A stretch of 64,000 bases of DNA from Nemertoderma westbladi (GCA_032718475.1 JAUCBJ010000091.1:6095-70094), one strand, 5' to 3'. Positions 18,379 to 50,575 are shown, counted from the stretch's first letter. Numbers and translations: made by a program. The notes: generated by a model not told the origin, from the letters alone.

Positions 18379-18390
18379 TTAAAGGATATA
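18379..18390 (+). promoter_or_regulatory. Non-tRNA primer-binding site TTAAAGGATATA, complementary to LTR 17581-17592
   Basis: Abuts the LTR terminal CA. Exact reverse complement of TATATCCTTTAA at 17581-17592 (and 28777-28788). Confidence 0.75.
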
Positions 18391-18645
18391 GCTTCTTTAT
18401 TGCAGTAAGCAATAAAGTCGAAAGTACCGGTCGACCGGTAACCAGTAGGCCTGACTGCCTGATCATCCGGACCGGTACCTACAGCAGTATTATTCGATTT
18501 TGATTGTTATATACCAGTAGGCCTTAATAATTAATCAGGGACGGCCGCCCTGATTTTTTATTGAGATTTTACTTATTTCTGTCAAGATTTATTTGTTTGT
18601 AGGCCAGTATTGAACAGAAGGCGTGTAAACCTGATCAGATTGTAC

Positions 18646-19220
18646 AGACAATTTGTAGGCTGAGCTGTTGTCTGATTGCTGTTAAGTCCGAACGAATTGC
18701 AGTGTGTGTAGAGCACTTGTCCGATTAAGTACGGTTAGGAAGTAGGGGCAGCCACGCTGTAAGGTAAACCCCCGACTAAAGAATAAGTCGCACTACTGGG
18801 TTAGAGCGCATACTCCCTAATCATTTCGGAGTCTGCATATACCGTAGTTTATTTAGGCTTGAGAGTAGTCTGCCATCGTTTAGTCTGTACTTTGTTTGTG
18901 TAAGTCTGTACGGGTAGCGTATAATTTTATTTAAATAATTTGTAGGCTGGATAGTTGTCTGGCTGTTATTAAGTCTGAACGGATTGCCGCGTGTGTAGAT
19001 CATCTGTCCGATTAAGTACGATTAGGCAGTAGGGGCAGCAACGCTGTAAGGTAAACCCCCAACTAAAGAATAAGTCGCACTACTGGGTTAGAGCGCATAC
19101 TCCCTAATCATTTCGGAGTCTGCATATACCGTAGTTTGTTTAGGCTTGATAGTAGTCTGTCAGTGTTCGGTCTGTATTTTGTTTGAGTAGTTTGTACGCG
19201 TAGCGTAATATTTATTATTC
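18646..19220 (+). repeat. Two tandem copies of an approx. 287-bp leader unit in the inner element
   Basis: Units start at 18646 and 18933; homologous to 8273-8850. Confidence 0.88.
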
Positions 19221-20533
19221 AGAGTTTATGCGATTATTCGCAACATTCAAGTCCCTAAGTTTGTTCCTACAGTAATTGTGTTTGTTATACATACCGTTAT
19301 AGTTAAATTAACCCCGGTACTACACGGGCTGCTCGGCGTAGGTAAAGACTGGTGATTTTGTGCATCGGTCACTCCAGCAGATGCCGTGGTTCTTTTAGCT
19401 GTTCAAGTATATTTAATTACTGATTATCTGTTATACAAGTACTCGTACCTAATTTAGGGTTTAGTGTATGGTACTTTCCGAAGTAATCATTGTAGGCATT
19501 ATATTTGTGTTGTAAAGTGGTTGATAGGCACATTCGATTAGCTCTATTAACTTCTAGGTAGGAACACTCCGTGATACATAACGTAGAACCTATAGCGATA
19601 CGGCTATAGGTCGTCAGGAGGTGGTATTTTCCTATCTAGACAACGCAGTGTATTTACTACTACTTATTATTTCAAATACCGTAGTACCCTGTCCGCTGTA
19701 ATAACCGGTTTTCTAACCCTTTGTTAGGCTGGTTTGTAGACTTCTTGTAAAATTACCCTAAAAATTCGTATTTGTGTTTTTGTAAGATTTTGTGTTTATT
19801 TAGAGATTGTAATCTCAACCCAAATTGTACGTAATTTGTAGTATTAAGTAACTTAGGTAAATTAGTATTATTTGTTTTAGTGTCCTGTACGTAACACTTC
19901 ACTGAAAGCGCACCGCTTTGTGTAGTGATTACCCCCAGAAATAATAACATTTATTTCAAACATTGACAAAACCCATTAAAACGGGTATATATATATTATA
20001 AATCAAATCTAACGATTTATAAATCGTAGGCCTACCATACAACCATTAGGCCTCAATATCAGTTGGATTACTGCTCAAATAACGGTAATAAAGTAAGTAA
20101 AGTAACCAAGTAACCCTAAAGTAACAGAAATTCAATTATTTGAAATAATTGATATACCGGTATTTACGATAGGCCTATTATCTTTATTTCTATAAATCTA
20201 GGCTGAAATTATACCGGTACTTGTAATTAATTCTATTTCAGAATTATATATCCTACAAACTGTAAGCTGTATACCGGTATTCAGATAGGCCTATTATATA
20301 TTTATATATATTTGTGCTAAAATTATACCGGTATTCTGTGATAAACCTAGTCTGTAATAATACTTATATAGTTATATATACTATAAGTATACCGGTATTC
20401 TAATATATTATATATATCACGCTATACTGAGTAGCAGTACCGGTAATTAATTACTAGACTAGCAGGTAATACTGAGTTACTAGACTTACTCAGACTGTAA
20501 TACAGCAGTAGACATTCAACGGTATACATAGTC

Positions 20534-23500
20534 ATGTCTGATACTAAGCAGAACCTGTCAGACAGTTTATTAGATGTAACTATCTGCGACTCAGATAGAG
20601 ACGTACAAACGTCTGGTCGTAAATCCAGTTCACCTCCCACTGTGAGGAAGGTCATCCCTCCAGTAGTAATAACAGAACCTAGGCTAGTCCAACATCGTAG
20701 GTCTATCATAGGCACTCGAGCTCAGGTCAAGCGGGACCAAAAGGCAGCGGAACAGCAACAACCCGCTAGTCAAGAACTTATTCCTCAGCGGCCCAGCAGC
20801 TCCAGTAGTGATGATACTGTAGAGCTGACACCCGAGAGCGGAGCAGAGATGACGGATGCGGTTTATACGGATCCCCTTCTCATCCTTCCTGCAGCCGTGC
20901 TTGCCGGGTTATTGATCGCGGTGGAAGAACACCAGATCGATTGGGCGAGGAGTCAACGGACAACTAGAGATAGCTACGCGGGCTACACTAGTGAAGAACT
21001 GAAGTCTATTGTCGAGTCGCAATGGAACTTCCCCGGACCCGGACTCCCGTTTGATTTATCCGAAGCGGCCTGGGAAGACATACACCGGATGGGAGTAGCC
21101 CAGGAAACCATCGATCCAGCTGTGTGGAAGAGGTCCGCAGCCGGATACGCACAGGGATTCTTCAGCTCTATGGAGCGAATAGAAAAGCAACTTTTTCAAC
21201 AACCTCAAGGACCTCAAGAGCAGGGATCGCTGCTTTATCAAGTTAGAGAAAGAGTTCTGCGGATTAGGCTAATCTTATCCGCCTTTGAGGAGGCTTCTAA
21301 ACGAAAGCAAGACACGTCGTTGCAAGTTGCCATAAAGACTTGGTTTCAAAGGGTGAGTCACCAGGTTCAAGGAGCAGCTCAGTGGAAAGCTCAATTGGAG
21401 GAGCGCTCAACCCATGGAGAATCAACGGACGCTATTTCTTCCCAAGTGGAAAGTGAAGCGACGGCAGAGAAACCGCATAAGAAGGATGCCATTGATATCT
21501 ATCTGTCAGACTATCAGCGTTTTGTGGGAGATGAAGAGTTGAGGAGAAGGCTAGAGGGACTTAGCCCTAATAGCGAAGGAGCCAAACTTGTGTTAGATGC
21601 GATTGATGTGGATAGGTTAGCGGCGAACCAAGCTAAATTCGATGAACAACTCCGCATCGCTAGAGAAAGGGAAGAACAAGTAAGGAAAAAGCGTATAGAA
21701 GACAGAAAGATAGCAGCAGTGGCAGAGGCAGAAAGAAAAGCGGCAGCGGCAGAGGCAAAAGCGGCAGCGGCAGCGGCAAAAGCGGCAGCAGTGGCGGAAG
21801 CAGAACGAACAGTGGCGGAAGCAGAACGAAAAGCGGCAGCGGAAGAGGCAAAAGCGGCAGCAGCAGAGGCAAAAGCGGCAGCAGTGGCGGAAGTAGAACG
21901 AAAAGCGGCTGAAGAGATCATCCAACTGGAGTTGGAAAATCTTCAAGAGAAACAAGACGACTTCAGTAAACAGTTAGCAGCTAGTAATATGCAGATGATG
22001 AGTCGATCTACTCCCAAAAGACAAGGGTATACCTCATCTGAGGAAGGCGATACCACCGACACTGAAGGCGGAAGAAATCGATCTCGCCTAAGCAGACGTA
22101 AAAGAACATTCCACCGGCAGAAATTGCCTGATTTGCCTCCAGCTGTTAGAAGGCAACTAAATAACACTAACTTAGGTAGTACAGAGCCCACAGACCAAAT
22201 AATTAAAATAGAAAGACTCCCTACTATAGTAGATGAGCCTGAAATAATTAGGCCTGTTCTTGAAATCACCCCTTCGGTGATAGACACACCTGTGCTCCCT
22301 GAAGCTACTTCTAAATTCCCTCTACATAGCACTAAGCTACCTGTGCCCAGTAGAACTGCCCAGGCGACAGTTCAGGTCCTGGACCCCGAGCGAAATATTC
22401 ATAATTTGTCGCCCGTTGTCCCTCGTCCGCCCGCTACAACGTTGGCGACTCCCGCTTCGGCGGTCGAATGGGTGGACGAGGGACGGCGGGGGATGGATAT
22501 CCTGCTCGGACAGTTGCAGGAGACTGTCCAGCAATTCAAGGGCACAGTAAGGGAAAGTAGACTAGAGTTGCAAGAAGTGCAGCAAAGTATCGCGCTAGAA
22601 CGCGATAAATTAGTAAATACCCAAAAGGGTATACCACCACCCTCTGTAACAATGTGTCAACCTGTTAGGTCTGAAGTATTGCATGCGCAAGGTGTGGAGC
22701 CTACACGCATATATACTGCTAGCGAAGTAGAAACTCCTATAGTGAACCCTATTAAGGGTAATTATAGACCTGTTGATAATGACATTCCCTATAGACCTGA
22801 TCATAATCCGAGAAATTTATATACCGATGACTCGATATTAAATAACACGATGGCCCAAGAAAGTTTTACGCGTCAAATGGCTAGAACCGAAGCCCGGCAA
22901 GCGGTGAAGGTGGGAGAGATAGTCAAATTCAATGGAGATGAGATGAAATGGTTACCTTTTAATGAATATTACAAAGATAACATACAGAACTCTGTACTAT
23001 CTAATGGAGAAAAACTTAGATACCTCATCGAGTGCTTGGAAGGATCTCCCAAGTTAATGGCGTTAAAGTTTATTGGACATCCAGACGGATTAAGACAAGT
23101 TTGGGACACGCTAAACATCAGGTATGGTAATAGGACTAACATAGCTAGGTATTTATATGCGAAATTAATGGCGCCCCGAAAGTTTCTTAGCAGCGGGATT
23201 ATAGAGTTTTCCGATGAGATTCAGGAGATCTGTAGACAACTAGATTGGTTAGGTAAGTCTCATGAATACCAGAATTCTATGGTTGTAGGAGCCTTAGCAT
23301 CTACTTTGCCCAAGGGTGGAGTAGGTACACGCTGGGACAAGAAGGTGTTATATATGATGGAACAACAACGACGAGACCCTACCATAGCTGATCTCATGTC
23401 ATTCTTAGATGGAGAAGTGAAATTACAGCTCCTAAGGCAGTCCAGAGAGAAGACACTGGAAAACAAGGTAAGTGAGAAACCCGTTTCTAGGAGAAGGGTA

Positions 23501-25498
23501 ATACCAGTATGTTATACCGACGACGGTGAAAGCCAAACTTCTCAAGGAGAGGACAGCGGGAAAGACACTGACAGATCTTATGTCAATAAAATGCCTAAAG
23601 ATCAGGTAAGTAAATCCAAGTCTCGACCCAATGACAGAAGGGAACCGGTACAAAAAACCCCTCCTACGTCTCCTAAAAGAATTCAGGTGAGAAAGCCCGA
23701 GGAAAGAACAAGTGTGCACCACATAGCACAGGTTAAAGTAAGTAACATCAAGCCCAAATGTGTGCTGTGCGACGGGCCCCACCGTTTAAATGCGTGTGAT
23801 AAATTCCTGAGGAAATCACTCGAGGATAGACGTGAAGTCATGTGGGATAAGCGGTTGTGTTATAATTGCCTCAGACGAGGACACCAACGGCGAACCTGTA
23901 ACTCCGACGCAAGGTGTGCAAAGTGCGGCGCAAATCATCATATCTTGTTGCACACGGAATTCGAACGAAACAGCCCGAGTCAGGTAAGTGAGTCCGAACT
24001 ACATGTCCAATTCAGTGATGTGAACGACACTGATCAATCTGAGATGGAAGGATTCTATACGGACGAGTTCTCCGACCAAAACGAATCCTGTTACCTAATA
24101 AACACCACCGCAGTGTATCGAGCACTCGTACATGAGAAAGACACAGACAGCGACCTTACCTTAACTACTTCCGATCAACAACCATCTTGGAAAGCGCCAA
24201 CTTTCAATATAGGAATCCGAGAGTTTCCTGTGGTGCAGGTAAGGGTGCACGGACCTAAACGGAGTTATGTAGTGAACGCCCTCCTGGACTCCGGCAGCAC
24301 AGGAACATTCATCGATAAAGAGCTAGCCGAAGATATATTTGCTGGACAACCCAAGTTCCAAACTAAGCTCAACATGTCAGGCATTATGCAAGTTTGGAAA
24401 TCTACAATAACAGCTGATTATTATGTAGGCGCGTTGTCCACCCCACAAGACGAACTAGGAGAACATAGCATAAGGTCAGTGAAAATGGTGGCTATAAAGA
24501 ACTTCGCTACTACTCAAGCAGACCTTTATAATTGGGACGAGGATGAGAGCATCCAACATCTTAACATACCTCGATTCCAGACTGATTATCCTGGAGTGCA
24601 AATACTCATCGGCCAAAACGCGCATGAGGCGCTGGAGACATTAGAGAAACGGCCTGCTCAACCGCAGCCACTACAGACCTATGCGGTAAGAACTAGAGTA
24701 GGTTGGTACCTTACTGGACCTTCCGGTAGAACGCTCAGGGAAAGACTGCTTCAAGATCGCGTCTGCCAGATGAGTGAATGGGAAGATGATACTAGTGAGG
24801 GAGACGACCCAACTGAGGGAACACCACACTCCTCAGATAATGACAATCTTAGCTCCAATGTAGATCAATGGAGATATTGCCCCAAGAAGTTTTATCCAAC
24901 GGACATCGCTTCCAGAGGAGCAACTCCTCAAGAACTGACAGATACTATAGACCGGTTAGGTGAACCCGACTTCCTGAGTAAGGAGAATGAATGGCCTCCC
25001 CATCTTACTCCGACTGAGATTAGACCAGCCAAGGGAGCGGAGAAAGTCGAACCTGAAACCCGGACGGGTGGATCGGAGTTATTTGAACCCGGGATAGATC
25101 TGTCGGTATTACATGTTGCCAGGGACGACGCCGTGGATCTGGGCCTCCCCTCCGCGAGTGGATCCTGCATGAAGATCAGAGAGAGCGATTGGAGCTCTGG
25201 AACATCAGACGTCTCGCAGGGACTCTCACCTCTCCTGCAGAGAGCGACGGACCACTATAGCTCCTGGAATCGGCTTTGTGACGCCGTCATATACTTTGAG
25301 CGATGTTTCTATCGTCACTATTCCAGGACGAAGAGGAAACCTGGAATTGTATTCAGGATACAGCGACTCAATCACCCAGTCGGTCGTTTGTGTTTATCGG
25401 AAGGGAATGGAGGACTCTCCGGAAACTGTGGAAGGCAAGATTCTCTTCCCACGACCACCTCCCTAATCCTTCAAACATCTAGGGACTCCATAACGTAA
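20534..25498 (+). CDS. Intact Gag-protease polyprotein of the inner element, with in-frame remnants of RNase H and integrase C-termini (1654 aa)
   Basis: Same Gag, knuckle and ALLDSGS motifs as the outer element. Jumps from the post-protease linker to DQWRYCP..DIASRG near 24850, and from HYSSWNRL..HYS to KPGIVF..RLC near 25335. No YMDD and no DDE core. Confidence 0.92.
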   Translation: MSDTKQNLSDSLLDVTICDSDRDVQTSGRKSSSPPTVRKVIPPVVITEPRLVQHRRSIIGTRAQVKRDQKAAEQQQPASQELIPQRPSSSSSDDTVELTPESGAEMTDAVYTDPLLILPAAVLAGLLIAVEEHQIDWARSQRTTRDSYAGYTSEELKSIVESQWNFPGPGLPFDLSEAAWEDIHRMGVAQETIDPAVWKRSAAGYAQGFFSSMERIEKQLFQQPQGPQEQGSLLYQVRERVLRIRLILSAFEEASKRKQDTSLQVAIKTWFQRVSHQVQGAAQWKAQLEERSTHGESTDAISSQVESEATAEKPHKKDAIDIYLSDYQRFVGDEELRRRLEGLSPNSEGAKLVLDAIDVDRLAANQAKFDEQLRIAREREEQVRKKRIEDRKIAAVAEAERKAAAAEAKAAAAAAKAAAVAEAERTVAEAERKAAAEEAKAAAAEAKAAAVAEVERKAAEEIIQLELENLQEKQDDFSKQLAASNMQMMSRSTPKRQGYTSSEEGDTTDTEGGRNRSRLSRRKRTFHRQKLPDLPPAVRRQLNNTNLGSTEPTDQIIKIERLPTIVDEPEIIRPVLEITPSVIDTPVLPEATSKFPLHSTKLPVPSRTAQATVQVLDPERNIHNLSPVVPRPPATTLATPASAVEWVDEGRRGMDILLGQLQETVQQFKGTVRESRLELQEVQQSIALERDKLVNTQKGIPPPSVTMCQPVRSEVLHAQGVEPTRIYTASEVETPIVNPIKGNYRPVDNDIPYRPDHNPRNLYTDDSILNNTMAQESFTRQMARTEARQAVKVGEIVKFNGDEMKWLPFNEYYKDNIQNSVLSNGEKLRYLIECLEGSPKLMALKFIGHPDGLRQVWDTLNIRYGNRTNIARYLYAKLMAPRKFLSSGIIEFSDEIQEICRQLDWLGKSHEYQNSMVVGALASTLPKGGVGTRWDKKVLYMMEQQRRDPTIADLMSFLDGEVKLQLLRQSREKTLENKVSEKPVSRRRVIPVCYTDDGESQTSQGEDSGKDTDRSYVNKMPKDQVSKSKSRPNDRREPVQKTPPTSPKRIQVRKPEERTSVHHIAQVKVSNIKPKCVLCDGPHRLNACDKFLRKSLEDRREVMWDKRLCYNCLRRGHQRRTCNSDARCAKCGANHHILLHTEFERNSPSQVSESELHVQFSDVNDTDQSEMEGFYTDEFSDQNESCYLINTTAVYRALVHEKDTDSDLTLTTSDQQPSWKAPTFNIGIREFPVVQVRVHGPKRSYVVNALLDSGSTGTFIDKELAEDIFAGQPKFQTKLNMSGIMQVWKSTITADYYVGALSTPQDELGEHSIRSVKMVAIKNFATTQADLYNWDEDESIQHLNIPRFQTDYPGVQILIGQNAHEALETLEKRPAQPQPLQTYAVRTRVGWYLTGPSGRTLRERLLQDRVCQMSEWEDDTSEGDDPTEGTPHSSDNDNLSSNVDQWRYCPKKFYPTDIASRGATPQELTDTIDRLGEPDFLSKENEWPPHLTPTEIRPAKGAEKVEPETRTGGSELFEPGIDLSVLHVARDDAVDLGLPSASGSCMKIRESDWSSGTSDVSQGLSPLLQRATDHYSSWNRLCDAVIYFERCFYRHYSRTKRKPGIVFRIQRLNHPVGRLCLSEGNGGLSGNCGRQDSLPTTTSLILQTSRDSIT

Positions 25499-27151
25499 CA
25501 ACATATGGAGTGGGTGTGTGACTCTATTATTTTATATTATTATTATTATTTTTATATTTATGTACGTATTACTATGTAATTTTATTATAATCGTTTTATT
25601 TAATTTAGTAGAATATTATTTAGCGATTATTTTGTAGAATAGTGCGATATATTCGTGTTTATTACGTACGTCATTACTTATATTATATTTAGTGCGACGG
25701 CGAAGAGATAATTACTTTTCTCTTTCCTTACTGTCCGTATTATACTATAAATACGTAACAACAGTAAGATGAAATGTCTGTACTTATTAAAGTACAATAA
25801 AGCCACTACTATATTTAAGTATTATTGGTAGGCAGAGTATTAGGAATGCAAAGTTCAGATCCTCGTGTCTCGGCTAAACCAAGCTCTGGGTAGACCTTGG
25901 AAACGACTTGCCTCTTCACACTGACATTGCTTCGTGCGATATTGCTCTCATACCGTATATTAAATAATACATATAGTAGCGTGATGTCCCTTTAACAGTA
26001 GCGTATAACGCAAAATAAATCTGTTAAACCCTTTGACCATCTGTAATTCTAGTCGATTAAGATATCGCGGCACCCACCGATATACTTGAAAGACAAATTC
26101 TAGAATCAGTGGTTAACGTCCCCAGACAAGTTCTGGAATAAATCGGTGCCCATCTCAAATATTAATTAATTAATATTTGCAAAATCTAATAAATCAAAAT
26201 CTGTAAAATTCAGATCCTTCAATAATTCTAGTCAATTAAGATATCGTAGTATTTACCGATATTCTTAAAAAGACAATTGTCATAGAACTAAGGATCTTGT
26301 GTCCCCAGACATGTTCTGGAATCAAAATATGTCCATTTAATTATCAAATAATAAAATTTCAGGGAATCAATTTAAATTCATGCCTTTTAATGAATTTAAT
26401 AAATTGCCATTTTTACGCAATTTATAAAGTTCCCAAAATTCCATTAATTAATAGATCAAGGGAGCGGAGATTTATCTTAGCATGCGTATGAGTGTGTGAA
26501 AGTCTCCCAAACATAGTCAATAGCCGATAAAATTCATAAAGTCATGTATAAAACAGAACATTGACTATTAAAGAATTACTATTAAATAACATCCCAGATC
26601 TGTATGCATTGGAATTACTCTAATTCTACCGCTAGCTTTGCATAATGTCACCATAGCAACAACCACGCTAGAATTAGAATTGAGTTAAACTAACAATAGA
26701 AAGCTTGTCCCATTGAATAACATAGGGAATAAATAGTGCACTGATAGTATCCAAGGATACATAATAATACAGTGACATTCTGGAAGGCATTGACTAACGG
26801 ACAAGTGACCCGAGTGTGTGTAATTTGTGACAAGTTGTGTGTGTGGTATTTGTGAGTTTATAGGTGAATGTTACTGCTAAGGTGTGTTTACAGTAGCTAG
26901 TCGCAATCGTAAAAGTAACCTAACTCTCCAAGGAAACCTGAAGTACATCTAAGCCTTTGGGACGGACAGTTGAGTGACTTGTGCCGGTTGTCGTTGTCGT
27001 TGTGCGGCTACGTCGTTGGCGAAAGTACAGCGGCTACGACACATCGGCGCTGAGGATCTCGTACTGTCCGGGGTTGATTGGGGTAGGCAGTGACGCCCGC
27101 TCGCCTAAATATAAACTCATTATAATATGGATAAACTCATATATAGCAGAT

Positions 27152-28229
27152 ATGACGGAGTTGATAGAAGATGGTCTTGTCATCCTATCGATTTACACAA
27201 TACGGACTATGTCGACTATATATCCTGCCCAGCGGAGTCGGAACCATAAACGGAAATTCGAATGCGAAAATTCTATTCGAAATCGACTCGAAAGAAAAGA
27301 CACTTAAGAAACAAATGGACGCGGTAACTCCAACGTATATTTGGAATTCTTGATAGAAGCATTGTAACAACAAATAAATATCACCCGCGTTTACCCTACC
27401 AGACGTGCGTCTTTGGTATTATTACGATAAATGCCCTAGACCCAACTAATAAACGGAAAGACATAAACATCCACGTAAACCGAAACTTGTTGACGTATCA
27501 CCTATGCTTACTCGACTCGAACGATCCTGGAGTAAACCTACGATCAGAGTCCCGGAATACTCGGTCAAACCTCCTCATTCCTTAGTTGGACCTCAGACCT
27601 GCGATCTTGATGGTGTCGCGGATCCTCGCGGACTGTATTCACTGTTCAAAGATCTAGTGCTACCCTAACAATTAATCGGTAACACTCCGACAGTGATTTC
27701 TAGCTAACCGCCCATCTTACCTAGCCGGATTGTGACGCGGACACCTAATATCACTATCCAACCGTATGGTCGTCCACGTTTAACGCGATACAACCCCTCA
27801 TCAAGGGGAAGGAGAGCGTTGTACGAAACGAGTTAAACGCTATTTTATAAAGATCAAAAAGGAAACCTGCGTTTGTTCAGATAAACGTAAGTTATAACAG
27901 TGAGTCCAATCGATACACGAATTGGCCTTATCTCAATTCGATTGGGAAATCCAGAATCTCTGAGAAGTTATCGAACTTGGACGATCCTATTCTCTGCGAG
28001 AGTTTTTGGATGAACGTATCCAGCTACGAGCGGAGGAAAATCAGCTCGAGGAGAAGCATATCGAAACGGCAGATACCTCGACCACAATCCTACACCTTCT
28101 GATGCAATCATATTGCACCCTTCACCCAGGAGTTATGGCCCTCCTAGTAAAGTGGCTCCCCCCAAAGAGAAAAAGACTCTTGCTAGCCTCAAAAAACTGC
28201 GTAAACGCCGTCTGCGTAAGAAAGACTAA
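27152..28229 (+). pseudogene. Decayed, internally deleted copy of the accessory 3' ORF
   Basis: Starts ATGACGGAGTTGATAGAAGAT (compare 32555) and ends ..CGTAAGAAAGACTAA (compare 36813). Many stops and indels; exonuclease and zinc-finger region deleted near 28065. Confidence 0.88.
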
Positions 28230-28307
28230 CTGTTTAGAGTATCTTTATGTTTTAGAAACTGTGATTTTTATATTTTATAGACTGAAAATCCCATTTTCTG
28301 GGAGCGG

Positions 28308-28954
28308 TGTAAAAGCCTTTGCTGAATTGCCCCGTTATTTTTATTATCTTTTACATTAAAATACTCTGTAGTTGATTTAATAAGTGTAAGAGACCGTATT
28401 ATTGCTGTATCGGTGTTTTTAGAGGATCTAAGACCTATTTCCTCCGTATGTGTACTGTGAAAGGCATATTTTATGATTCTATGGCAATTCGTGATGCAAA
28501 AGGGTGATAGCTACTCTTGAACAGTAGTTACTATGACTACGGTTAACAGCTGACATTCATACGTGTTGATTTCCTTTGTTCTACGGCGTCTCTCAGTTCA
28601 GTCAGCCAATGAGAGCGTTTTTGTGGCTCCTTGTACAGAAAATTTCCGAGAAATGACGCAATGCCTATGTGCAGTGTTTACATTCAGTCTTGAGCCAAAG
28701 AAAGAACGGCTTGGAAGTATTTTTTGTGCTGTACTGCTTTTTAGTCGTACACTAGTAGGTTTAATTATAAAGGGCATATATCCTTTAACTGTAAATATCT
28801 CACTGCTGCAATTTAACATACCTAACGACTACTGCTGACTGATGATCATACATGCTGACTGCTGAAACATTGCAAACTCATAACAATCAGTGTTCAGTAG
28901 TTATTTTATACTGCTATTTACCGTCAGTTCTTCATAATATGGTTGATGAATTAT
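28308..28954 (+). repeat. Truncated 3' LTR of inner element (647 of 1267 bp)
   Basis: Matches 17112-17758 with two substitutions noticed, then switches abruptly to pol sequence. Confidence 0.92.
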
Positions 28955-29726
28955 GGTAGATACTCCAGACTGGTTAGGTGGACCCGACTTCCTCTACAAA
29001 GAAGAAGAAGAATGGCCTCCTCATCTTACTACAGCAGAAATTAGACAGGCCAAGGGAGCGGAGAAAGTCAAGCCTAAAACTCAGGCGAGTAAATCGAAGT
29101 TATTCAAACCCACAGTAGATCTGTCTGTCCTACATACTTCCGGAGACGACGCTTTGGATCAGAAACCCACAGCCACAAATAAACCCGTTGTGGAAATCCG
29201 TGATAAGGATTGGAAATCTGGCATACCAGACGTCTCGCAAGGACTCTCACCTCTTCTGCAGAGAGCGATACATCACTACAGTTCCTGGAATCGGCTCTGT
29301 AAGGCCGTTACATATTTAAAGAGATGTTTTCACCATCACTACTCTGGGATGAAAACAAAGGGTGATACCGCTCCAATCACATCAGTGCAGGTCCATGTTA
29401 TTAAAGATCTTCCCAAACATAAGATACCCGACAGGTTTCTGAAGGAGAAGATCAGTTATCAGGAGCATGAAGAAACCAACAAACAGATGCTGAGACTCTT
29501 ACAATGCTATGAAGATTCCGATAAGTATTTCCTGTTGTTGAGAAATCCACAGATGCGCTTAAGGGATCGTTTCTCTAGCACAAGGATAGATGGGTTGATA
29601 CGTGTTGGAGGAAGGTTAACGAATGCCCCATTATCCTTTGATACTAAGTTCCCCATACTCATTAGAAATCTTGAAATACAAGTCAAGATGATTGTAGATG
29701 TTCACAGCAAACTTTATCATGCTGGT
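28954..29726 (+). repeat. 773-bp direct duplication of outer pol 16339-17111
   Basis: TGGTAGATACTCC...CATGCTGGT occurs on both sides of the inner element, with identical translation. Confidence 0.93.
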
Positions 29727-30914
29727 AGAGAACGAGTTCTTAGCGAAATTCGAACTCGCTATTATTTTTATAAACCCCGTAGAGCTCTGAACCAAGTTCT
29801 TAGGAACTGTATACCCTGTAGGAAAGCATTCAGTAGGCCTTTAACACAGAGAGAGGCAAAATTACCTAGGGAACGAGTAAGCTTTTATGAACCACCCTTT
29901 ACTAATACCGGTGTGGATTTATTTGGCCCTATTGAAGTATATCGTGCTAGGACTATAGTCAAGAGATGGTGTGTAATCTTTGTTTGTATGACTTGTAGAG
30001 CCATCCATCTCGATATGGTGAACGATTTATCTACCAACAGCTTTCTATTAAGCTTACGACGACAGATCGCTTGCTTTGGCACTAGTAACACGATGAGATC
30101 TGATAAGGGAACAAACTTCATTGGTGCCAACAATGAAATCAAAGCTTACGTCAAAGATTGGAACCAAAGACAGGTGGACGACCAACTACGAGTAACAGCG
30201 TCTAGTTGGACCTTCAACGCCGCCGACGCCCCTTGGTGGGGAGGAAGTTGGGAGAGATTAATAAGAAGTGTGAAGACAGCATTTCATTTTATAGTGCCTT
30301 GCCGCGCTTATCTCACCGACGAACTTTTGCGGACGTTAATGGAAGAAATCGCCGCCTATCTCAACGAGAGACCGCTTATGCCAGTCTCATCGAGTCCCGA
30401 TTCCCTGGAAGCGCTAACACCCGCGCACTTCCTACTGAAGAAACCTGTAGCCATGCTCCCACAATCGGAAATCACAGATGGAGACAAATACTGCCGACAA
30501 ACTTGGCAACTCATGCAGTTGTTATCCCGTCGTTTCACTGACCATTTCGAAAAACATTATCTGCCCACGCTACAACTTCGAACTAAGTGGTTTGCGCAGC
30601 AAGAAAACGTCAGCGCTGGAGACATGGTTCTTATTGTGGATGTAGATCTTCCACGTAAGCAGTGGCAGACAGGTCGTATAATCGAGACCCACATCTCGGA
30701 TGACGGTTTGGTGCGATCGGTAGAACTCGTCGTCATGCGACGTAACTTCAAGAAACCGGGAATTGTCTTCGAGACGCAGCAGCTCAATCGCCCAGTTGGT
30801 CGCTTATGTTTACTGGAAAGAGACAGAGAACTCTCCGGAAACTATGGGAGACAAGATACTCTTCCCACGACCACCTCCCTAATCCAACAAACATCTAGGG
30901 ACTCCCCAACTTAA
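29727..30914 (+). pseudogene. Outer element integrase (3' part of gag-pol; within ORF 28953-30914)
   Basis: H..LYHAG..CIPC zinc finger, PFTNTGVDLFGP, RAIHLD, SDKGTNF, PWWGGSWERLIRSVK, LNERPL, LTPAHFL, DDGLVRSV, RPVGRLCLL. Confidence 0.93.
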
Positions 30915-31466
30915 CAACGGCTGGAGTGGGTGTGTGACCATATTATTTTATATTTGTATTTGTTTTATTTTTATATTTATGTATGTATTATTATGTAATT
31001 TTATTTTAATCGTTTTATTTAATTTTATTTAGTAACATGTTATTTTAGCGAGCATTTAGTAGATTAGTGCAATATATTCGCATTTATTACGTAATTACTT
31101 ATATTATATATTTAGTGCGACGGCGAGAAATAATTCTTTTTCTCCTTCCTTACTGCCCGTATTACATTATAAATACGTGACTACAGTAAGATGAAATATC
31201 CGTACTTATTAAAGTACAATAACGCCACTACTATATTCAAGTATTATTGGTAGGCAGAGTATTAGGAATGCAAAGTTCAGATCCTCGTGTCTCGGCTAAA
31301 CCAAGCTCTGGGTAGACCTTGGAAACGACTTGCCTCTTCACACTGACATTGCTTCGTGCGATATTGCTCTCATACCGTATATTAAATAATACATATAGTA
31401 GCGTGATGTCCCTTTAACAGTAGCGTATAACGCAAAATAAATCTGTTAAACCCTTTGACCATCTGT

Positions 31467-31740
31467 AATTCTAGTCGATTAAGATATCGTGGCACCCACC
31501 GATATACTTGAAAGACAAAATTCTAGAATCAATGGTTAACGTCCCCAGACAAGTTCTGGAATAAACTGGTGCCCATCCTAAATATTAATTATTAATATTT
31601 ACAAAAATCTGTCAAATATCAGATCCTTTAAAATTCTAGTCGATTAAGATATCGTAGCACTTACCGATACTCTTAAAAGGACAAAATTCCTAGAATCAAG
31701 GATCCAAGTTCCCAGACACGTTCTGGAATAAAATTGTGTC
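31467..31740 (+). repeat. Duplicated unit (about 165-bp period) in the pol-to-accessory-ORF spacer
   Basis: AATTCTAGTCGATTAAGATATCG...CCAGAC..TTCTGGAAT at about 31467 and 31632; also at about 26045 and 26224 in the inner element. Confidence 0.8.
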
Positions 31741-32554
31741 TATTTAACATTAAATAATAAAATTTACGGGAATAAATTTAAATTCAGATATTTTAATGAA
31801 TTTAATAAATTGTCATTTTAGACAATTTATAACATTCCCAAAATTCCATTAATTAATAGATCATGGGAGCGGAGATTCACTCTATTAAGTGTATTTGTGT
31901 GCGAGAATCTCCAATGTATAGTCAATAGCCGATAAAATTCATAGAATCATGTATAAAGGGGATATTGACCATTAAAGAATTACTATTAAATAGCATCCCA
32001 GATCTGTATGCATGAGAATTACCCTAATTCTACCGCTAGCTTTCCATAATGTCACCATGGCAACAACCATGCTAGAATTAGAAGTGAGTTAAAAGAACAA
32101 TAGAAGGCATGCCCCATTGAATAGCATAGGGAATAAATAGCGCATTGCTAGTATCCAAGGATACATAATAAATACAGTGACATTCTGGAAGGTACTGACT
32201 AACGGACAAATGGCCCGAATGTGTGCAGTTTGTTGCAGTTGTGTTGAATTTGTGCGTTTGTAGGTGAATGTTACTACTAAGGTGTGTTTACAGTAGCGAG
32301 TCGCAATTGTGAAAGTAACCCTAACTCTCCAAGAAGAACCTGCAGTACATCTAAGCCTTTGGGACGGACAGTGAAGTGACTTGTGCCGGTTATCGTTGTC
32401 GTTGTGTAGCTACATCGTTGGCGAAAGCACAGCGACGACGGTACATCGGCGCTGAGGATCTTACACTGTCCGGGGGCAAAAGAGGGGTAGGCAGCGACGC
32501 CCGCTAGCCTAATATATATAAACTCATTATAATATTGATAAACTCATAGCAGAT

Positions 32555-35500
32555 ATGACTGAGTTGATAGAAGATGATCTTGGTATCAGGGAGCGATATA
32601 CTCTACCTTTACAAGCGTTTGTCGATAGCTTGATACGCGGCGACGCTGGTCCAACTACTACGGAGGATGATGGTCGTTATATCGAACCGCCAATGTCCCC
32701 GGAGCAACTTACGCGTGAATTGGATTATAGAAAGTTCACCGCTCGTTATACGCATCGTAATGGTACGTATATGGACTTCCTAACTACTGGCCACCCTATC
32801 GATTTACACGATACGGACGATGTGGATACCAAAAGGGAAATGGTTTTATTTAAATATCATACCCAGCGGAATCGGAACGATAAGCCAAGAACAGAACACG
32901 AGAACTCTATTCGAAACAGACTCGAAAGAGAAGACGTTGAAGAGCCGGATAAACGCAACGACTTCAACGATTATCTGGAATTCTTGAGAGAAACATACCT
33001 CAATATTGCCAGTCAACAAAATCTCGAAACTCGATATCCTCAAGGTATACATCATGATCCTATGATAGAACTCAAACGACTCTATTTCACTATGATGTAT
33101 CTTAGCGCCGATCGACCGCTACCTGTTGTCCCAGATAGCTTCGAACAGATGGAGGAATATTGTAAAACTGGAGAACGATCACCCGCGTTTCCTCTGCAGG
33201 ACATGCGTCTTTGGTATTACTGCGACGAATGCCCTAGACCCAATCAGCAAACGGAAAGACATAAACATCCGCGGAGACGTTGCGCTAAACACAGTTTTAC
33301 ACGATATACTTACGGGAGTTTCGAGCGAAACCTGTTCGACGTGTCCCCTGCGGTCGCTCGACTCAAGCGATCCTTGAACAAACCGATGATCAGAGTTCCG
33401 GAATACTCGGTCAGACCTCCGCATTCCTTAGTCAGACCTCAAACTCTTGACCCTAATAGTATCACGGATCCTCCCGAACTGTACTCACTGTTCAAAGATC
33501 TAGTGTTACCCGAACAGTTGATCGGTGGCACTCCGGTAGTAGGCTCACGGGACATTCGCCAACCCTACCTAGCTGGATTGGGACGTGGTCATCTAATATC
33601 GCCGTTTAACCCATACAACCGTCCCGGCTTCACCTCTATCCAACCCGTTATGGAAGTCGAAGAGAGCGTCGTACGAAACGCATTAGATGCTATTCGGCAG
33701 AAAATCGGAAAGGGAACGTACGATTGTTTGGAGAAGCGTAAATTGCAGCAACAAGTCCAAGCGGTGAAGGAATTAGCTTTACCCCAGTTCGATAGAGAAA
33801 TACAAAATCTCGAGGAGGACATCGAACGTGGACGAACCTACTCTTTACAAGAGTTTCTAGATGAGCGTCTACAACAACAAGCGGAGGAGAATCAGCTCGA
33901 GGAGAGACATATAGAACTGGATGAGAGAGAAGAAGCGGCTTTAGCTCAACCCGAAGCGCAAATCCTTATGACGGATCTCTACTCTAAAACCATTCTTCAT
34001 CCCTCGATGGTTCCCCATTTCGGAGACAAACTTTTTGCGATGGCACAACCCCAACCGGTTGATATCAACCTAAGATCTCGAGATCTTATCGCCGACGCTC
34101 CTCTGTTGCAGCGTCCGCCCATCGAATCCGCTCGTGTCGATGGTATACTCGTTGAACCTCCGGACAATAGAGCAGATCTTGTCCGTCGCATGGTACACGA
34201 TGTAAACATACGCGCTAGACCTTTACCGGACTCGTTTTACGGGATCAAAGATCACCCTTATTACGTCAATCTAAAACAATATTACATGGTAAAACCGGAA
34301 GATCCTACACATAGTCTGAAGTTTCTACCGCTAATAAATCCTCTCGATCTTGTCGAACTCGAACAACTGCAGAAACATCTGGATCAGTTAGTTAAAGTAA
34401 ACTCATTTCGAAAACCATATAATGTTTCCAGAATAGAGAAAGAAACAATACCTCCGTATAATCTTGATGGATTCATCAAAACTCGTTTAGTGCACTGGAA
34501 TCTTGATGTGTTATTCGAGGAGGAAAGAATACAACGATATGGAGATGAGGAAACACATACCACACAATATTTAAAGTATAAAGACCTGCCTAATGCTAGC
34601 GAATGCGCTACCTTGTGGCATCCTGTGGGAATGACACTAGAAAACGCCACAAAAGAGTGGAACGAAACTCTTAATGTTATCGAGATGTATGGAGTTGTCA
34701 CTTACGATAACGAAGGTAGCGTTCCGGTTGGAGAACTTGGAACTACGCGGATGATACATATACGAGGACTCGCTGGTTCTACCCACGTATTTACTCGAGC
34801 GTGTTCCGACGTTATTGATTATTCTTTTGAAACTCTTACTGAGACGCAAAAGAAACTCCGACATGGACAATTTGAACTCGCGCAGCATTACGTCACCGAC
34901 ACCGAGCGCAAACCGGCCATGGGTATCGATGGATCGATGTTACCCCAACCCGTGCTCGAGATGTTGTTTAACGAAGGAATCCTTAAAATCGGCTCAGCTG
35001 TTTATGGAGACCTACAGAACGACTTTCGGAATATGGAGAACATTCCATACCCCTTCGTTGACACTCAGCTGATTGCTCCTTGGGCAGAAGGCCGAGGTTT
35101 CTTCCGCACTATGTATGCCAATACACCCAGCGGAATTACTAAAGTACAACGAACCTCCATCGGACATCTTGCCTTTCAAGAATACGGATGGAATTTCAAG
35201 GTTGGAAATCCTATAAATTACCAACAAGTATACGGAGATCATTATTCTCGTTTATACTTTGATGGACCATTGACCGCACCTGGCGCCGTGTATAGCTTTA
35301 TGAGTGTTCCACTTCGTCCCTCCTTAGCTATATACACGATCTTTGAAAACGCAGCACTTGCCGGTTGGCTAGCCGATGTGTGCAGTCGTACCATACGCGC
35401 CCATCCCTTAATACTTGGAACCAAACTCGCCAAGTTAGATGAATACAATAAATTCATCCGCTTTGAATGTTTCAGGCGCTTTCTGACTCCGTTCCGTAAC

Positions 35501-36370
35501 ATTGATAGTCAGTTCAAAGACCACGCTCTGACCAAACTCAGCCTGAGAGACTCAGCGGCGGAGAAGCTAAACAGCGCGGGATTTGCCCTTTTTCAGGACA
35601 TTTGTATACAGAACTTACATTCATCTGTTATACAAAGACCCCGAATACCCACGGGTTATTCTGTCGTCGAAGTTCAGACAGTGGGTCCTCTTGCGGAGAC
35701 AGCCGCACCTACCTCAGCTATGCAATTGGAAGACGAACCAATATGCTTAGAAGCTGAAGCGATTCAACCTACAGCGCCCCGGAGCAGCGATAACGACTAC
35801 GTCTTAGAGTGGTATCAAGGTCCACAATGTCTCACTGCATACGATTATCGACACGCTAACTATGTTTCTCGAAAACGTTGTCGATTATGCGCATTGAGAG
35901 ACCATTTCACCCCTATGGACTCAGACGTACCCTGCTCCTATTTCCACGAACAACCGATGATGGAGATATATTGTGCGTATTGCAGACTTAATAACTCTCA
36001 TATTTTTGCAGTCTGCCCCCAATTTATGACTCAATGCCACCACTGTCAACTTAAAGGACATGCCAGTTATAATTGCCCCTTTAATCACGATTTAGAGAGC
36101 GTAGATGAAATGATTACCCTGCGCTACATCCGAGCTTGGGAAGCGAACGCGGATTTACATTGTGAGTCCCGTCATCGATACTACCCTGGACGCTCTTACG
36201 AGGGAGTTTACGCGTTCCATCCTTATTTATTAGCGTCTGTGGAACAAAAAACACGCATACCGAGTTACGAGCTAATGAAGCGTGTTGGTGAGTGTATTTC
36301 CACCAAATTTGTTCGAAGATATCTTAGGAACGTCAACCCGATCCTAACGATATTACTTCATACCATTTGA
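32555..36370 (+). CDS. Accessory retrotransposon ORF: N-terminal Cys/His motif, coiled coil, DEDDy (WRN/EXD/RNase D-like) 3'-5' exonuclease domain, C-terminal zinc fingers
   Basis: ExoI VVTYDNEG, LPQPVLEML, ExoII ILKIGSAVYGDL, FVDTQ, SIGHLA, and ExoIII-position YTIFENA. Then CRLCALRDH, CAYCRLNNSHIFAVC and the knuckle CHHCQLKGHASYNC. 1271 aa, inside the LTRs. Confidence 0.75.
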   Translation: MTELIEDDLGIRERYTLPLQAFVDSLIRGDAGPTTTEDDGRYIEPPMSPEQLTRELDYRKFTARYTHRNGTYMDFLTTGHPIDLHDTDDVDTKREMVLFKYHTQRNRNDKPRTEHENSIRNRLEREDVEEPDKRNDFNDYLEFLRETYLNIASQQNLETRYPQGIHHDPMIELKRLYFTMMYLSADRPLPVVPDSFEQMEEYCKTGERSPAFPLQDMRLWYYCDECPRPNQQTERHKHPRRRCAKHSFTRYTYGSFERNLFDVSPAVARLKRSLNKPMIRVPEYSVRPPHSLVRPQTLDPNSITDPPELYSLFKDLVLPEQLIGGTPVVGSRDIRQPYLAGLGRGHLISPFNPYNRPGFTSIQPVMEVEESVVRNALDAIRQKIGKGTYDCLEKRKLQQQVQAVKELALPQFDREIQNLEEDIERGRTYSLQEFLDERLQQQAEENQLEERHIELDEREEAALAQPEAQILMTDLYSKTILHPSMVPHFGDKLFAMAQPQPVDINLRSRDLIADAPLLQRPPIESARVDGILVEPPDNRADLVRRMVHDVNIRARPLPDSFYGIKDHPYYVNLKQYYMVKPEDPTHSLKFLPLINPLDLVELEQLQKHLDQLVKVNSFRKPYNVSRIEKETIPPYNLDGFIKTRLVHWNLDVLFEEERIQRYGDEETHTTQYLKYKDLPNASECATLWHPVGMTLENATKEWNETLNVIEMYGVVTYDNEGSVPVGELGTTRMIHIRGLAGSTHVFTRACSDVIDYSFETLTETQKKLRHGQFELAQHYVTDTERKPAMGIDGSMLPQPVLEMLFNEGILKIGSAVYGDLQNDFRNMENIPYPFVDTQLIAPWAEGRGFFRTMYANTPSGITKVQRTSIGHLAFQEYGWNFKVGNPINYQQVYGDHYSRLYFDGPLTAPGAVYSFMSVPLRPSLAIYTIFENAALAGWLADVCSRTIRAHPLILGTKLAKLDEYNKFIRFECFRRFLTPFRNIDSQFKDHALTKLSLRDSAAEKLNSAGFALFQDICIQNLHSSVIQRPRIPTGYSVVEVQTVGPLAETAAPTSAMQLEDEPICLEAEAIQPTAPRSSDNDYVLEWYQGPQCLTAYDYRHANYVSRKRCRLCALRDHFTPMDSDVPCSYFHEQPMMEIYCAYCRLNNSHIFAVCPQFMTQCHHCQLKGHASYNCPFNHDLESVDEMITLRYIRAWEANADLHCESRHRYYPGRSYEGVYAFHPYLLASVEQKTRIPSYELMKRVGECISTKFVRRYLRNVNPILTILLHTI

Positions 36371-36813
36371 TCAATTATATCCGTCAAGACCCTGAGTATG
36401 GTGATTTATTTATCAACTCGCACCCTGAGTTACAGGAAGTATCTCGACGGCCCTACGAATATCGAGCCCGAGAACGCGAGCTGGAAAGAACTATTAAACC
36501 AAGGAAGTTTCTCACCACTCACGGTCCACCTACCGCCGTTGTCCAGACGACCCGTCAAGGACCAGTAGGAGCTGCTGTCCTAAGACGCGCCTTAAAGGCC
36601 GTTAGACCTCGCTCCGCTGAAGTTGATATCGATCAACCAGGTACCTCGACCGGCGGATACACCGATCGCAATCCGAAACCTTCTGATGCAATTGTATTGC
36701 ACCCTTCACCCAGGAGTTACAGCCCTCCTAGTAAAGTGGCTCGCCCCAAAGAGAAATGGACTCTTGCTAGCCTCAAAAAACTGCGTAAACGCCGTCCGCG
36801 TAAGAAAGACTAA
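36328..36813 (+). CDS. Probable frameshifted C-terminus of the accessory ORF with basic tail KKLRKRRPRKKD
   Basis: Frame is open from 36328, has no ATG start and overlaps the end of the 1271-aa ORF. The homologous tail is joined to the ORF remnant in the inner copy. Confidence 0.6.
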   Translation, partial: ERQPDPNDITSYHLINYIRQDPEYGDLFINSHPELQEVSRRPYEYRARERELERTIKPRKFLTTHGPPTAVVQTTRQGPVGAAVLRRALKAVRPRSAEVDIDQPGTSTGGYTDRNPKPSDAIVLHPSPRSYSPPSKVARPKEKWTLASLKKLRKRRPRKKD

Positions 36814-36891: not shown

Positions 36892-38068
36892 TGTAAAAGC
36901 TTTTGCGTAATTAACCGGTTATTTTCCCGTAAAGTACTCTGTAGTTGGTTTACCAGGCATAAAAAGGCCGTGTCCTTACTGTACTGGTGTTTTAGAGGAC
37001 ATAAAAGTCATTTCTTCTGTATTTGTACTTTAGAGGACATAATCCGCAATCTCGTGACGCAATAAGCTAGATACTCTTGAAAACAGTGTCGCTACCATGA
37101 CGACGGCTAACAGCTGATATTGCCACGTCGACATTTCTTTGTTTCTTTGTTCTCTCGTTGTTCGGTCGACCAATCAGAGCGTTTTTTGTCTCTGTGTTGG
37201 AGGGGGATACAGAAACTCAGTAGTTCAGTGTTATGTTTTTGCCCAGAGCCTAAGAACACCGGCTTTTCGCACCTCCGTGTTTCAGTCTTTAGCTTAACAT
37301 TAGTAGGCTTAATTATAGAGTGTATATCTGTTATCATACCAAAACTCAGTTATCTCAGTTAATAATCATAACATATCAAAACAAACCGCATCATTCATAC
37401 CTTAACTTTACTGCTTTTACTGTCGGTTATTCATTATATTTGTTGATGAAATATTATATCGGAATACTGATCAATAGTCAGACACCCAACCTTCTTGATA
37501 TACTAAAGGTTAGAGAGACCGGTTACAGATAAACGATTGCGACCTATGTTAAGTGGTTTGAAGTGAATCTAATGCTATTTCATAGGCCCGACATAAATTG
37601 TATGTTGCTCTCTTTATACGTGACCAAATTTAGTGAAGGTCGGCAGATTAGTGTGCAGTATTGTGCAGCATTGTGTATGATTGTAACTGATAACAAAGCA
37701 TCTCCTAAAGAATGCGCCATATACATAACTCTATAGCCTTTTCGTTGTGTCTAGTTTAAGTCATAACTCTGTTTACATATTTAGAGCGCCACGTCCTAAA
37801 GGAACTGTTAATATTTCCCGAAAGTGAATAATATTTGTCAGAGATTATATATTACGATCAGTCGAATAATACGGTAGGCTTACACCATCAATCATTAAGC
37901 TTCCGAATTCAGTCTCCCGGGTATATCCAGCGGGTGAATGATTGCGCATAGACTGGCTTCGGCTAATGTAGTGTATCAAATACTCGTCATAGGCTAAAGA
38001 CTATATATCATCTAAAAGACATCCTAATTTGGCAGGTTAAACTGTCAAAGGTCTTAAAAGCGCAAACA
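36892..38068 (+). repeat. 3' LTR of outer element (1177 bp)
   Basis: Near-identical to 6797-7973; followed by the TSD CGTAG. Confidence 0.96.
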
Positions 38069-50523: not shown

Positions 50524-50575
50524 TTTGACAAGGTTATTGATAAGTAATTACTATTCTTACTGCTGTCTGGCTGTA

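Follow-up and report, generated by a model that had tools for sequence, protein, structure and literature searches.

What does an LTR retrotransposon carry where others carry an envelope gene, when the gene in that position encodes a protein with no evident membrane segment? The question is raised by a long open reading frame, ORF3, in a 64,000-nucleotide stretch of the Nemertoderma westbladi genome (GCA_032718475.1, JAUCBJ010000091.1:6095-70094; here, the window). A preliminary description, made from the sequence alone, had taken this frame to encode a DEDDy 3'-5' exonuclease with zinc fingers.

An unusually long BEL/Pao element

ORF3 is the third gene of an unusually long LTR retrotransposon of the BEL/Pao group (Belpaoviridae), element A (Table 1). 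The element measures 18.7 kb, about twice the 4.2 to 10 kb usual for the group (PMC3118150). It is young; its LTRs are 99.7% alike, with 3 differences between the 5' and 3' copies, and a 5-bp target duplication, CGTAG, flanks it at 6792-6796 and 38069-38073. The Pfam families DUF1759, Peptidase_A17, and DUF5641 all score above their curated cutoffs, and element A has the triple Cys-His box in gag, the LLDxG protease, and the order PR-RT-RH-IN by which BEL/Pao elements are defined (PMC554778). Its RT region is 30% identical to that of the one other BEL pol compared.

Both gag and pol of this copy are damaged. The frame is broken between gag and the first part of pol, and a nested 11.8-kb sister, element B, separates integrase from RT. 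Element B retains an intact gag-protease frame (20534-25498), and its LTRs show 2 differences in 646 shared bases. Two candidate signals stand in the spacer ahead of ORF3, an acceptor-like TTTGTAG (near 32256-32262) and a TATA-like box (32513), to both of which we provisionally ascribe a function; ORF3 would be expressed from its own promoter or from a spliced RNA. The host genes within the window are single long frames in which introns are not evident.

Table 1. Features of elements A and B, with positions counted from the first nucleotide of the window
Feature	Position	Strand	Basis
5' LTR of element A, 1177 bp, TG...CA	6797..7973	+	LTR comparison, target duplication
gag of element A; in-frame stop at 10840-10842; triple Cys-His box near end	10189..13632	+	DUF1759, E 8e-11
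pol of element A, first part: protease LLDSG, RT YMDD, Pao RNase H region	13764..17111	+	Peptidase_A17, E 2e-36
Nested sister element B: full 5' LTR, RT deleted, 3' LTR cut short	17112..28953	+	
Decayed ORF3 copy in element B, internally deleted, nuclease and knuckle regions missing	27152..28226	+	tblastn
pol of element A, integrase part: H2C2, DDE core, DUF5641	28953..30914	+	
Exact 773-bp repeat of 16339-17111, flanking element B	28954..29726	+	
Noncoding spacer, 1.6 kb, ~87% alike in A and B	30915..32554	+	
ORF3, 1271 aa, soluble accessory protein	32555..36370	+	
N-terminal ~680 aa of ORF3, no assigned family	32555..34600	+	no family or PDB match
Predicted DEDDy-type 3'-5' exonuclease domain, aa ~690-945	34622..35390	+	profiles
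Three CCHC-type zinc knuckles; first atypically spaced, third canonical CX2CX4HX4C	35879..36076	+	
Post-knuckle motif: WEANAD...R...GVY here, FE-x-A-D-x-G...R...GF in relatives	36137..36230	+	
161-codon open frame overlapping the ORF3 end, basic C terminus	36328..36813	+	
3' LTR of element A	36892..38068	+	

The ORF3 frame and its conservation

The frame runs from an ATG between integrase and the 3' LTR, as the preliminary description had placed it. The absence of an obvious transmembrane helix or signal peptide, also noted there, agrees with hydropathy, the one measure applied: the highest 19-residue mean is 1.19, and the N terminus is acidic. Position after integrase is the only feature that would recommend ORF3 as an unrecognized envelope or membrane protein; with no hydrophobic segment, an N terminus that is not signal-like, and the nuclease and knuckle matches set out below against it, that idea is hardly credible.

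A length of about 1420 amino acids had been suggested, on the view that a frameshift cuts off the end of the gene. A second frame does overlap ORF3 by 43 nucleotides and ends in the basic stretch that had been described. Judged from its sequence, this frame is probably the broken-off end of ORF3, but the longer product is not borne out by coding constraint on the tail, where dN/dS between A and B is 0.84 (95% interval, 0.23-4.4) over 53 codons. Programmed frameshifting was rejected: no slippery heptamer lies inside the overlap, and the sole candidate lies 5' to the stop codon closing the tail frame. The break is therefore read as a lesion or a sequence error. EAD2, a single subthreshold Pfam match, was likewise rejected as the identity of the tail.

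The N-terminal part of ORF3 includes a Cys/His cluster (aa 223-243) and a coiled-coil-like stretch (aa ~395-460); two PDB sequence matches to this part (E 0.65-0.93) were dismissed. Purifying selection has acted here. Across the 217 codons common to A and B (aa ~209-454), dN/dS is 0.17 (95% interval, 0.11-0.25) in the ORF3 frame, and the two remaining frames give 0.95 and 1.14; synonymous divergence is 0.92. The copy in element B is a remnant that matches at 49 to 52% over ORF3 aa 101-487 and at 78% over tail aa 108-148, with the same start context as in A and with seven stops in comparison with 33179-33916. Element B thus lacks a functional ORF3 yet has an intact gag and near-identical LTRs, and so ORF3 is not needed in cis.

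A predicted, divergent exonuclease domain

The ordered exonuclease motifs that had been read in ORF3 are all present: YDNEG (34703), KIGSAVYGDL (34985), FVDTQ (35054), SIGHLA (35156), and YTIFEN (35333). The K-[IV]-G...D-L...DF pattern is one that we take to be WRN/EXD2-like. Putative active-site residues are D718 (34706), E720 (34712), the ExoII Asp D819 (35009), Y927 (35333), and E931 (35345). The earlier observation that ExoIII reads YxxxE holds (Y927-x3-E931), whereas all 12 references have Y-x3-D. Y-x3-E is found as well in the nearest relative, P0003, and both proteins keep the P-L-x6-Y spacing of the references. Because the D-E-D-E site is common to the two, its last Glu is a family trait, and by sequence the nuclease is a DEDE variant, not a canonical DEDDy member.

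Profile comparisons suggest that aa ~690-945 form a very divergent DEDDy 3'-5' exonuclease domain. With hhalign, a three-sequence family profile matched a profile of 12 RNase D/PolA exonucleases at a probability of 94.2 and E 1.1e-7; the score was 54, and none of 100 column shuffles exceeded 21.4. The ORF3 domain alone scored 27 (shuffle maximum, 21) and, when set against the reference HMM, took third rank among 1000 shuffles. NCBIfam RNase D models matched over ExoII (E 0.019 and 0.042), and an Atlas feature search (0.92) placed 24 of 30 matches in PF01612-labelled clusters, with a Pfam share of 38 to 51%. At ExoI, D718/E720 aligned to D62/E64 of P0003 in three of four MAFFT settings, although default tool runs disagreed, and to the reference DxE in hhalign, which was built on one of the agreeing MAFFT alignments; the N-terminal pairwise score between the ORF3 nuclease and P0003 is not significant alone (655 of 2000 shuffles).

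Simpler searches gave less. A Pfam scan of ORF3 returned no family, a PDB sequence search with the nuclease domain alone returned no match, and neither an HRDC domain downstream of the nuclease (Pfam, E up to 1-10) nor Rrp6 was matched. A two-sequence profile drew four PDB matches with E values of 0.28-2.1. One, to RNase D (E 1.5), fell on ExoII; the remaining three were regarded as noise. AlphaFold gave the domain a pLDDT of 33 from the single sequence and 30 from a two-row alignment that was misaligned over ExoI. The proposal of a DEDDy fold joined to zinc knuckles in the env position thus stands on profiles, which predict both the fold and its four acidic residues, and gains no structural support.

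A conserved knuckle module and its relatives

The three Cys/His clusters reported after the nuclease were recovered, and a profile of the knuckles found HIV NC, Air2, Lin28, and chain set 7C42, with E values between 6e-6 and 5e-3. The best-conserved part of ORF3 is this three-knuckle module with the FE-x-A-D-x-G motif, not the nuclease. The module is kept in five of five relatives, while the nuclease is intact in one (P0003), degenerate in one (P0004), and undetected in three (L002, L003, and L004). P0003, found at E 8.6e-7 among 1.84 billion representatives, matches at 30% over 150 aa and has the same order of nuclease, linker, knuckles, and motif; it also matches the profile of 12 RNase D/PolA exonucleases over ExoI, ExoII, and DTQ (E 1.7e-4 among 253 sequences). 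A BEL/Pao context was shown for one relative only, L003, in which a pol ~27% identical to that of element A lies 1.7 kb ahead of an ORF that carries this knuckle module.

A word-indexed protein search with ORF3 aa 660-1000 gave no match and, with a three-sequence alignment, P0003 alone. An XRCC4-like neighbouring gene, searched in the same way, drew no match. Scans of viral contigs and prokaryote genomes found no relatives, tblastn against phages and plasmids gave no credible match, and PHROGs gave weak matches only (E 0.03-0.3). Another suggestion is that ORF3 is a recently captured host gene, a useless passenger. Host genes in the window are intronless-looking long frames, and a captured gene would look alike; however, ORF3 is present in two subfamilies at the divergence and dN/dS given above, its module recurs behind the distant pol of L003, and three large searches yielded no close cellular homologue, all of which makes the suggestion very improbable.

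With the module constant and the nuclease variable, weight moves from the nuclease to RNA binding. ORF3 might be a catalytically weak or dead adaptor, its fold only holding RNA ends, like EXD1 and Maelstrom, while it escorts or shields the element's own RNA, perhaps during nuclear export in the manner of Cer1 CERV. Replacement of the ExoIII Asp by Glu is consistent with this, as are the basic, NLS-like ends of the ORF3 tail, P0003, and L003. Inactive DEDD derivatives are reported still to bind RNA (PMC5408684), and a Cys-rich accessory protein has been shown to be required for the export of retrotransposon RNA (PMC10309623). However, four acidic positions and the Tyr are kept in ORF3 and P0003 at ~30% identity, conservation that is difficult to account for unless the site binds metal. 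We regard an adaptor of this kind as doubtful, though worth weighing.

Similarity to known systems

In the literature searched, we found no exonuclease as the third gene of a BEL/Pao element; the only accounts of a nuclease in the env position concerned rotifer elements, which belong to other groups. An older paper on nematode Cer elements reportedly mentions an accessory exonuclease-like ORF, which may bear on priority within BEL/Pao.

The rotifer precedent cited in the preliminary description is real: the bdelloid Juno and Vesta LTR retrotransposons and the Athena/Terminon elements carry a DEDDy exonuclease as ORF3 (PMC5408684). There, as here, a stand-alone RNase D-like exonuclease gene without a membrane segment occupies the env position, and the acidic tetrad is altered in both. 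The precedent does not extend to lineage or active site, since the rotifer elements belong to four lineages other than BEL/Pao and have the tetrad DEED, against D-E-D-E here (third Asp, fourth Glu). ORF3, at ~1270 to 1420 aa, also has a long N terminus and the three-knuckle module, whereas the rotifer account notes no more than a Cys-His-Cys motif, for two families. With ORF3, the occurrence of an exonuclease in place of an envelope, known from rotifer elements, extends to BEL/Pao, and the active-site variant differs. This suggests that retroelements have captured RNA-trimming enzymes several times, independently.

Trypanosoma brucei RNase D (TbRND, 7C42) resembles ORF3 in having a DEDDy exonuclease, then a linker, then tandem CCHC knuckles, although the knuckle profile match is weak (E 0.005); the top Atlas cluster for P0003 is a euglenozoan PF01612 plus zf-CCHC cluster (0.86). 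The knuckles of TbRND bind RNA and raise cleavage, and its fourth-tetrad Asp binds the A-site metal, with trace activity remaining on loss (PMC7797062). TbRND is a cellular mitochondrial enzyme with a canonical DEDD tetrad, four knuckles, and a linker of ~28 aa, whereas ORF3 has a linker of ~160 aa, three knuckles, and an extra motif afterwards. The two probably reached the same architecture independently.

Otherwise, element A is like BEL/Pao elements, including the env-bearing Cer7, Cer13, Tas, and Atlas, in its triple Cys-His gag, LLDSG protease, RT, Pao RNase H, integrase with DUF5641, TG...CA LTRs, and 5-bp target duplication. Its third gene encodes a nuclease/knuckle protein, in contrast to the fusion glycoprotein of those four elements. 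The host proteins EXD1, EXD2, WRN, and Mut-7 (Nibbler) have the PF01612-type fold predicted for ORF3.

Possible roles in the life of the element

We tentatively propose, with somewhat less than even confidence, that the ORF3 product is an RNA-binding 3'-5' exonuclease that would act in trans, most likely to weaken the surveillance of RNA by the host or the silencing of the element by small RNAs. In this scheme, single-stranded RNA would be held by the three zinc knuckles, from which its 3' end would reach the predicted active site of DEDDy type, active with Glu as the fourth ligand and with RNA as the substrate. The role against small-RNA silencing is plausible, as a candidate only.

Alternatively, the nuclease could aid replication, either by trimming primers, the 3' end of the RNA, or the ends of the cDNA, or as a proofreader for the 18.7-kb genome. 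Nidovirus ExoN provides the proofreading analogy for an unusually long genome. The size of element A fits this account, as do the resemblance of the knuckles to nucleocapsid and the occurrence of DNA proofreaders among DEDDy enzymes (PMC5408684). However, ORF3 is a separate gene, outside the packaged gag-pol polyprotein, the L003 element has a knuckle ORF in which a nuclease is undetectable, and element B moved without its own ORF3; we judge a replication role distinctly unlikely.

Beyond an exonuclease acting in trans on host silencing, one may imagine a widespread, as yet undescribed clade of oversized BEL/Pao elements encoding soluble anti-silencing proteins built on the three-knuckle and FE-x-A-D-x-G module, some with a fused DEDE exonuclease that actively trims host piRNAs/siRNAs or protective tails. 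This we consider unlikely; if true, it would reveal an enzymatic, transposon-encoded suppressor of animal small-RNA defense, shared in trans with nonautonomous sisters. As nuclease and knuckles lie in one unbroken frame, the role of ORF3, be it counterdefense, RNA escort, or replication aid, is testable on the isolated domain. The three knuckles and the conserved motif themselves form an unannotated module, absent from Pfam, by which accessory genes of distant BEL elements can be recognized.

The third gene of element A

Element A, the outer retrotransposon, contains between its LTRs gag (DUF1759, triple Cys-His box), protease, reverse transcriptase (YMDD), a Pao RNase H region (Peptidase_A17), and integrase (H2C2, DUF5641), which place it in BEL/Pao by the criteria of PMC554778. 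The LTRs have TG...CA ends, differ at three positions, and are bounded by a CGTAG target duplication. With the nested sister element B and a 773-bp repeat subtracted, element A measures 18,657 bp, larger than the 4.2-10 kb usual for the group (PMC3118150, available sections). The copy is young, yet not intact, with an in-frame stop in gag, a broken gag-pol junction, and B inserted in pol. The 2.2-kb leader includes a 290-bp tandem duplication and short AT-rich repeats, and no TGG, the usual start of a primer-binding site, directly follows the 5' LTR.

Features of the window and their coordinates
Feature	Position	Strand	Basis or remark
Slu7-like host gene	1043-2800	+	single uninterrupted frame, about full length
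C-rich tandem repeat	3672-6131	+	~2.4 kb of ~22-bp units, no stop codons on this strand
5' LTR, element A	6797-7973		1177 bp; self-comparison
Leader, element A	7974-10188
Tandem duplication in leader	8273-8856
AT-rich repeats in leader	9808-10072
773-bp repeat, upstream copy	16339-17111
Element B	17112-28953		nested in pol of A; self-comparison
Gag-protease frame of B	20534-25498		1654 aa
773-bp repeat, downstream copy	28954-29726		exact
ORF3	32555-36370		from ATG
Tail frame	36328-36813		161 codons
3' LTR, element A	36892-38068		1177 bp; self-comparison
Non-LTR retrotransposon fragments	39330-46004		fragments within this interval
Hairpin	39330-39420		91 bp
Endonuclease and RT frames	39890-42640		by inspection
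XRCC4-like host gene	43360-44355	+	single uninterrupted frame, about full length
Inverted copy of non-LTR element end	45921-46032		past XRCC4-like gene
Host gene	47809-50547	-	single uninterrupted frame, about full length
IST1-like host gene	62248-63588	+	single uninterrupted frame, about full length

The preliminary description had proposed a 1271-aa ORF here, with five exonuclease motifs, three Cys/His clusters, and no obvious membrane segment. The frame, motifs, and clusters are confirmed where they had been placed, and hydropathy (best 19-residue mean, 1.19) is consistent with the last point; the same test rules out an envelope protein. ORF3 of element A is broken before its tail, an open frame with a 43-nt overlap and a basic C-terminal stretch, and no slippery site was found in the overlap.

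ORF3 belongs to the element family as a genuine gene. Between A and B, dN/dS in its frame is 0.17 (bootstrap 95%, 0.11-0.25) over 217 aligned codons covering aa ~209-454 only, against 0.95 in one of the alternative frames and 1.14 in the other; gag has 0.20. The comparison leaves out the nuclease and knuckle regions, which B lacks, and the 53 comparable codons of the tail show no measurable constraint. Synonymous divergence is 0.92 in the ORF3 region, near saturation, versus 0.31 in gag, which suggests that the ORF3 piece of B derived from a more distant subfamily. Upstream of ORF3 lies a conserved spacer that holds a TATA-like box and an acceptor-like sequence, from which we infer expression.

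The rotifer precedent cited earlier stands: putative DEDDy exonuclease ORF3s have been described in Juno, Vesta, and Athena elements (PMC5408684), and PMC5718144, PMC6431247, and PMC6338049 cite them as the example. Their tetrad is DEED, whereas that of the window ORF3 is DEDE. The extra gene of BEL/Pao is env only in the available portions of PMC3118150, PMC554778, PMC9094657, PMC11662393, and bioRxiv 10.64898/2026.03.22.711591, and no exonuclease third gene in BEL/Pao was found in the openly available paper text searched. The observation is real; an exonuclease in the env slot is an already published idea, which here turns up in an apparently new element group, with a different active site and a knuckle module that lacks annotation.

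The nuclease domain

Direct scans found no Pfam family in the nuclease domain (aa ~690-945) or ORF3, and the domain had no PDB sequence match; NCBIfam RNase D models matched weakly over ExoII (E 0.019 and 0.042). Language-model features of aa 680-980 matched 3'-5' exonuclease clusters in 24 of 30 cases (0.92), the top match (0.93) being an unnamed fungal cluster. Exhaustive searching returned two relatives at E <= 0.001. The nearer, P0003 (648 aa), shares 30% identity with ORF3 across 150 aa that begin ahead of ExoII and reach ExoIII, and a second stretch of alignment covers the knuckles. A reference profile was made from 12 exonucleases (RNase D, polymerase-type, and giant-virus). P0003 matches it between ExoI and the DTQ motif (E 1.7e-4 in a set of 253 sequences); full ORF3 does not pass, and the nuclease domain of ORF3 taken alone comes third when ranked with 1000 shuffles. 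Profile-profile comparison gave a score of 54 for the three-sequence family (probability 94.2, E 1.1e-7; maximum of 100 column shuffles, 21.4) and 27 for the window domain alone, over ExoII only (shuffle maximum, 21.2). The fold is a profile result, since both structure predictions failed. The family-profile match supports the proposed DEDDy 3'-5' exonuclease; no Pfam family backs it, and ExoIII departs from Y-x3-D.

Placing ExoI at YDNE calls for an insertion of ~30 residues behind the third strand; three of four MAFFT settings gave this placement, and the default runs did not. Because the family profile was built on one of the agreeing alignments, its support for ExoI is only partly independent. 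The profile alignment does not reach ExoIII, which is placed by pairwise alignment and shared P-L-x6-Y spacing. As first noticed, it carries Glu: Y-x3-E-N stands in both the window and P0003, versus Y-x3-D in 12/12 references, and since P0003 shares it, the residue is inherited rather than a decay of the window copy. The matching Asp230 of trypanosome RNase D is a ligand of the A-site metal, and the D230A mutant retains trace activity (PMC7797062).

The knuckle module and its relatives

The constant part of the ORF3 family is the knuckle module, three CCHC zinc knuckles plus a post-knuckle motif. In an alignment of seven copies, 14 columns do not vary; they include the Cys/His positions of the second and third knuckles and the E, A, R, and G of the post-knuckle motif. 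With a module profile built without the window, ORF3 is the top match of 251 window frames (E 3e-7, the gag knuckles reaching 0.44) and scores 31.6, while 1000 shuffles stay at or below 8.9. In the PDB the profile matches HIV nucleocapsid, Air2, Lin28, and 7C42, none covering the post-knuckle motif.

A metagenome scan yielded four loci out of 141 pattern matches. L001 encodes P0004 (79-2025), whose nuclease-like N-terminus is degenerate and which carries the whole module twice in tandem; L002 is a fragment. L003 (5423-8212, 929 aa) and L004 (615-3329, 904 aa) encode mutually related, module-bearing proteins (E 2e-54; 25% identical across 778 aa), in which no Pfam family was found and no nuclease was detected (best E 0.88 among 255 frames). 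These proteins look to be a branch of this accessory-gene family that lacks the nuclease. In L003, BEL/Pao pol (Peptidase_A17 E 2e-44, DUF5641) is followed by a 1.7-kb spacer and the knuckle ORF, an order like that of the window, with pol identity of ~27%; among relatives, BEL/Pao context is established for L003 alone, not P0003, P0004, L002, or L004.

Element B and a possible function

In element B the gag-protease frame is intact and evolves under purifying selection (dN/dS 0.14-0.20), and RT is missing; integrase and ORF3 are likewise deleted or decayed, ORF3 having an internal deletion and the same start context as in A. B represents a non-autonomous family that may still provide its own capsid. 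Its 3' LTR is cut at 646 bp, the LTRs differing at 2 of 646 bases, and a 773-bp pol duplication flanks B where a 5-bp target duplication would be expected. The insertion could reflect an aberrant integration at one end, template switching, or an artefact of assembly.

Because B moved without its own ORF3, and because the module persists in distant BEL elements that have no nuclease, the ORF3 protein is likely a diffusible accessory factor rather than a core replication enzyme. Its nuclease-linker-knuckles order is that of trypanosome RNase D, whose knuckles hold single-stranded RNA and increase 3' trimming (PMC7797062, available text). On this model, the knuckles would grip RNA and the predicted DEDE site would trim its 3' end; host RNA surveillance or small-RNA silencing would be the likeliest target class. 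Nearly as likely, the protein is a non-cutting adaptor, a reading whose RNA-export version draws on PMC10309623 (available sections).

Genomic neighborhood

Many genes of the host seem to lack introns. The minus-strand gene we take to be RBM26/27-like, from its domain order. The C-rich repeat yields three spurious 700-aa frames.
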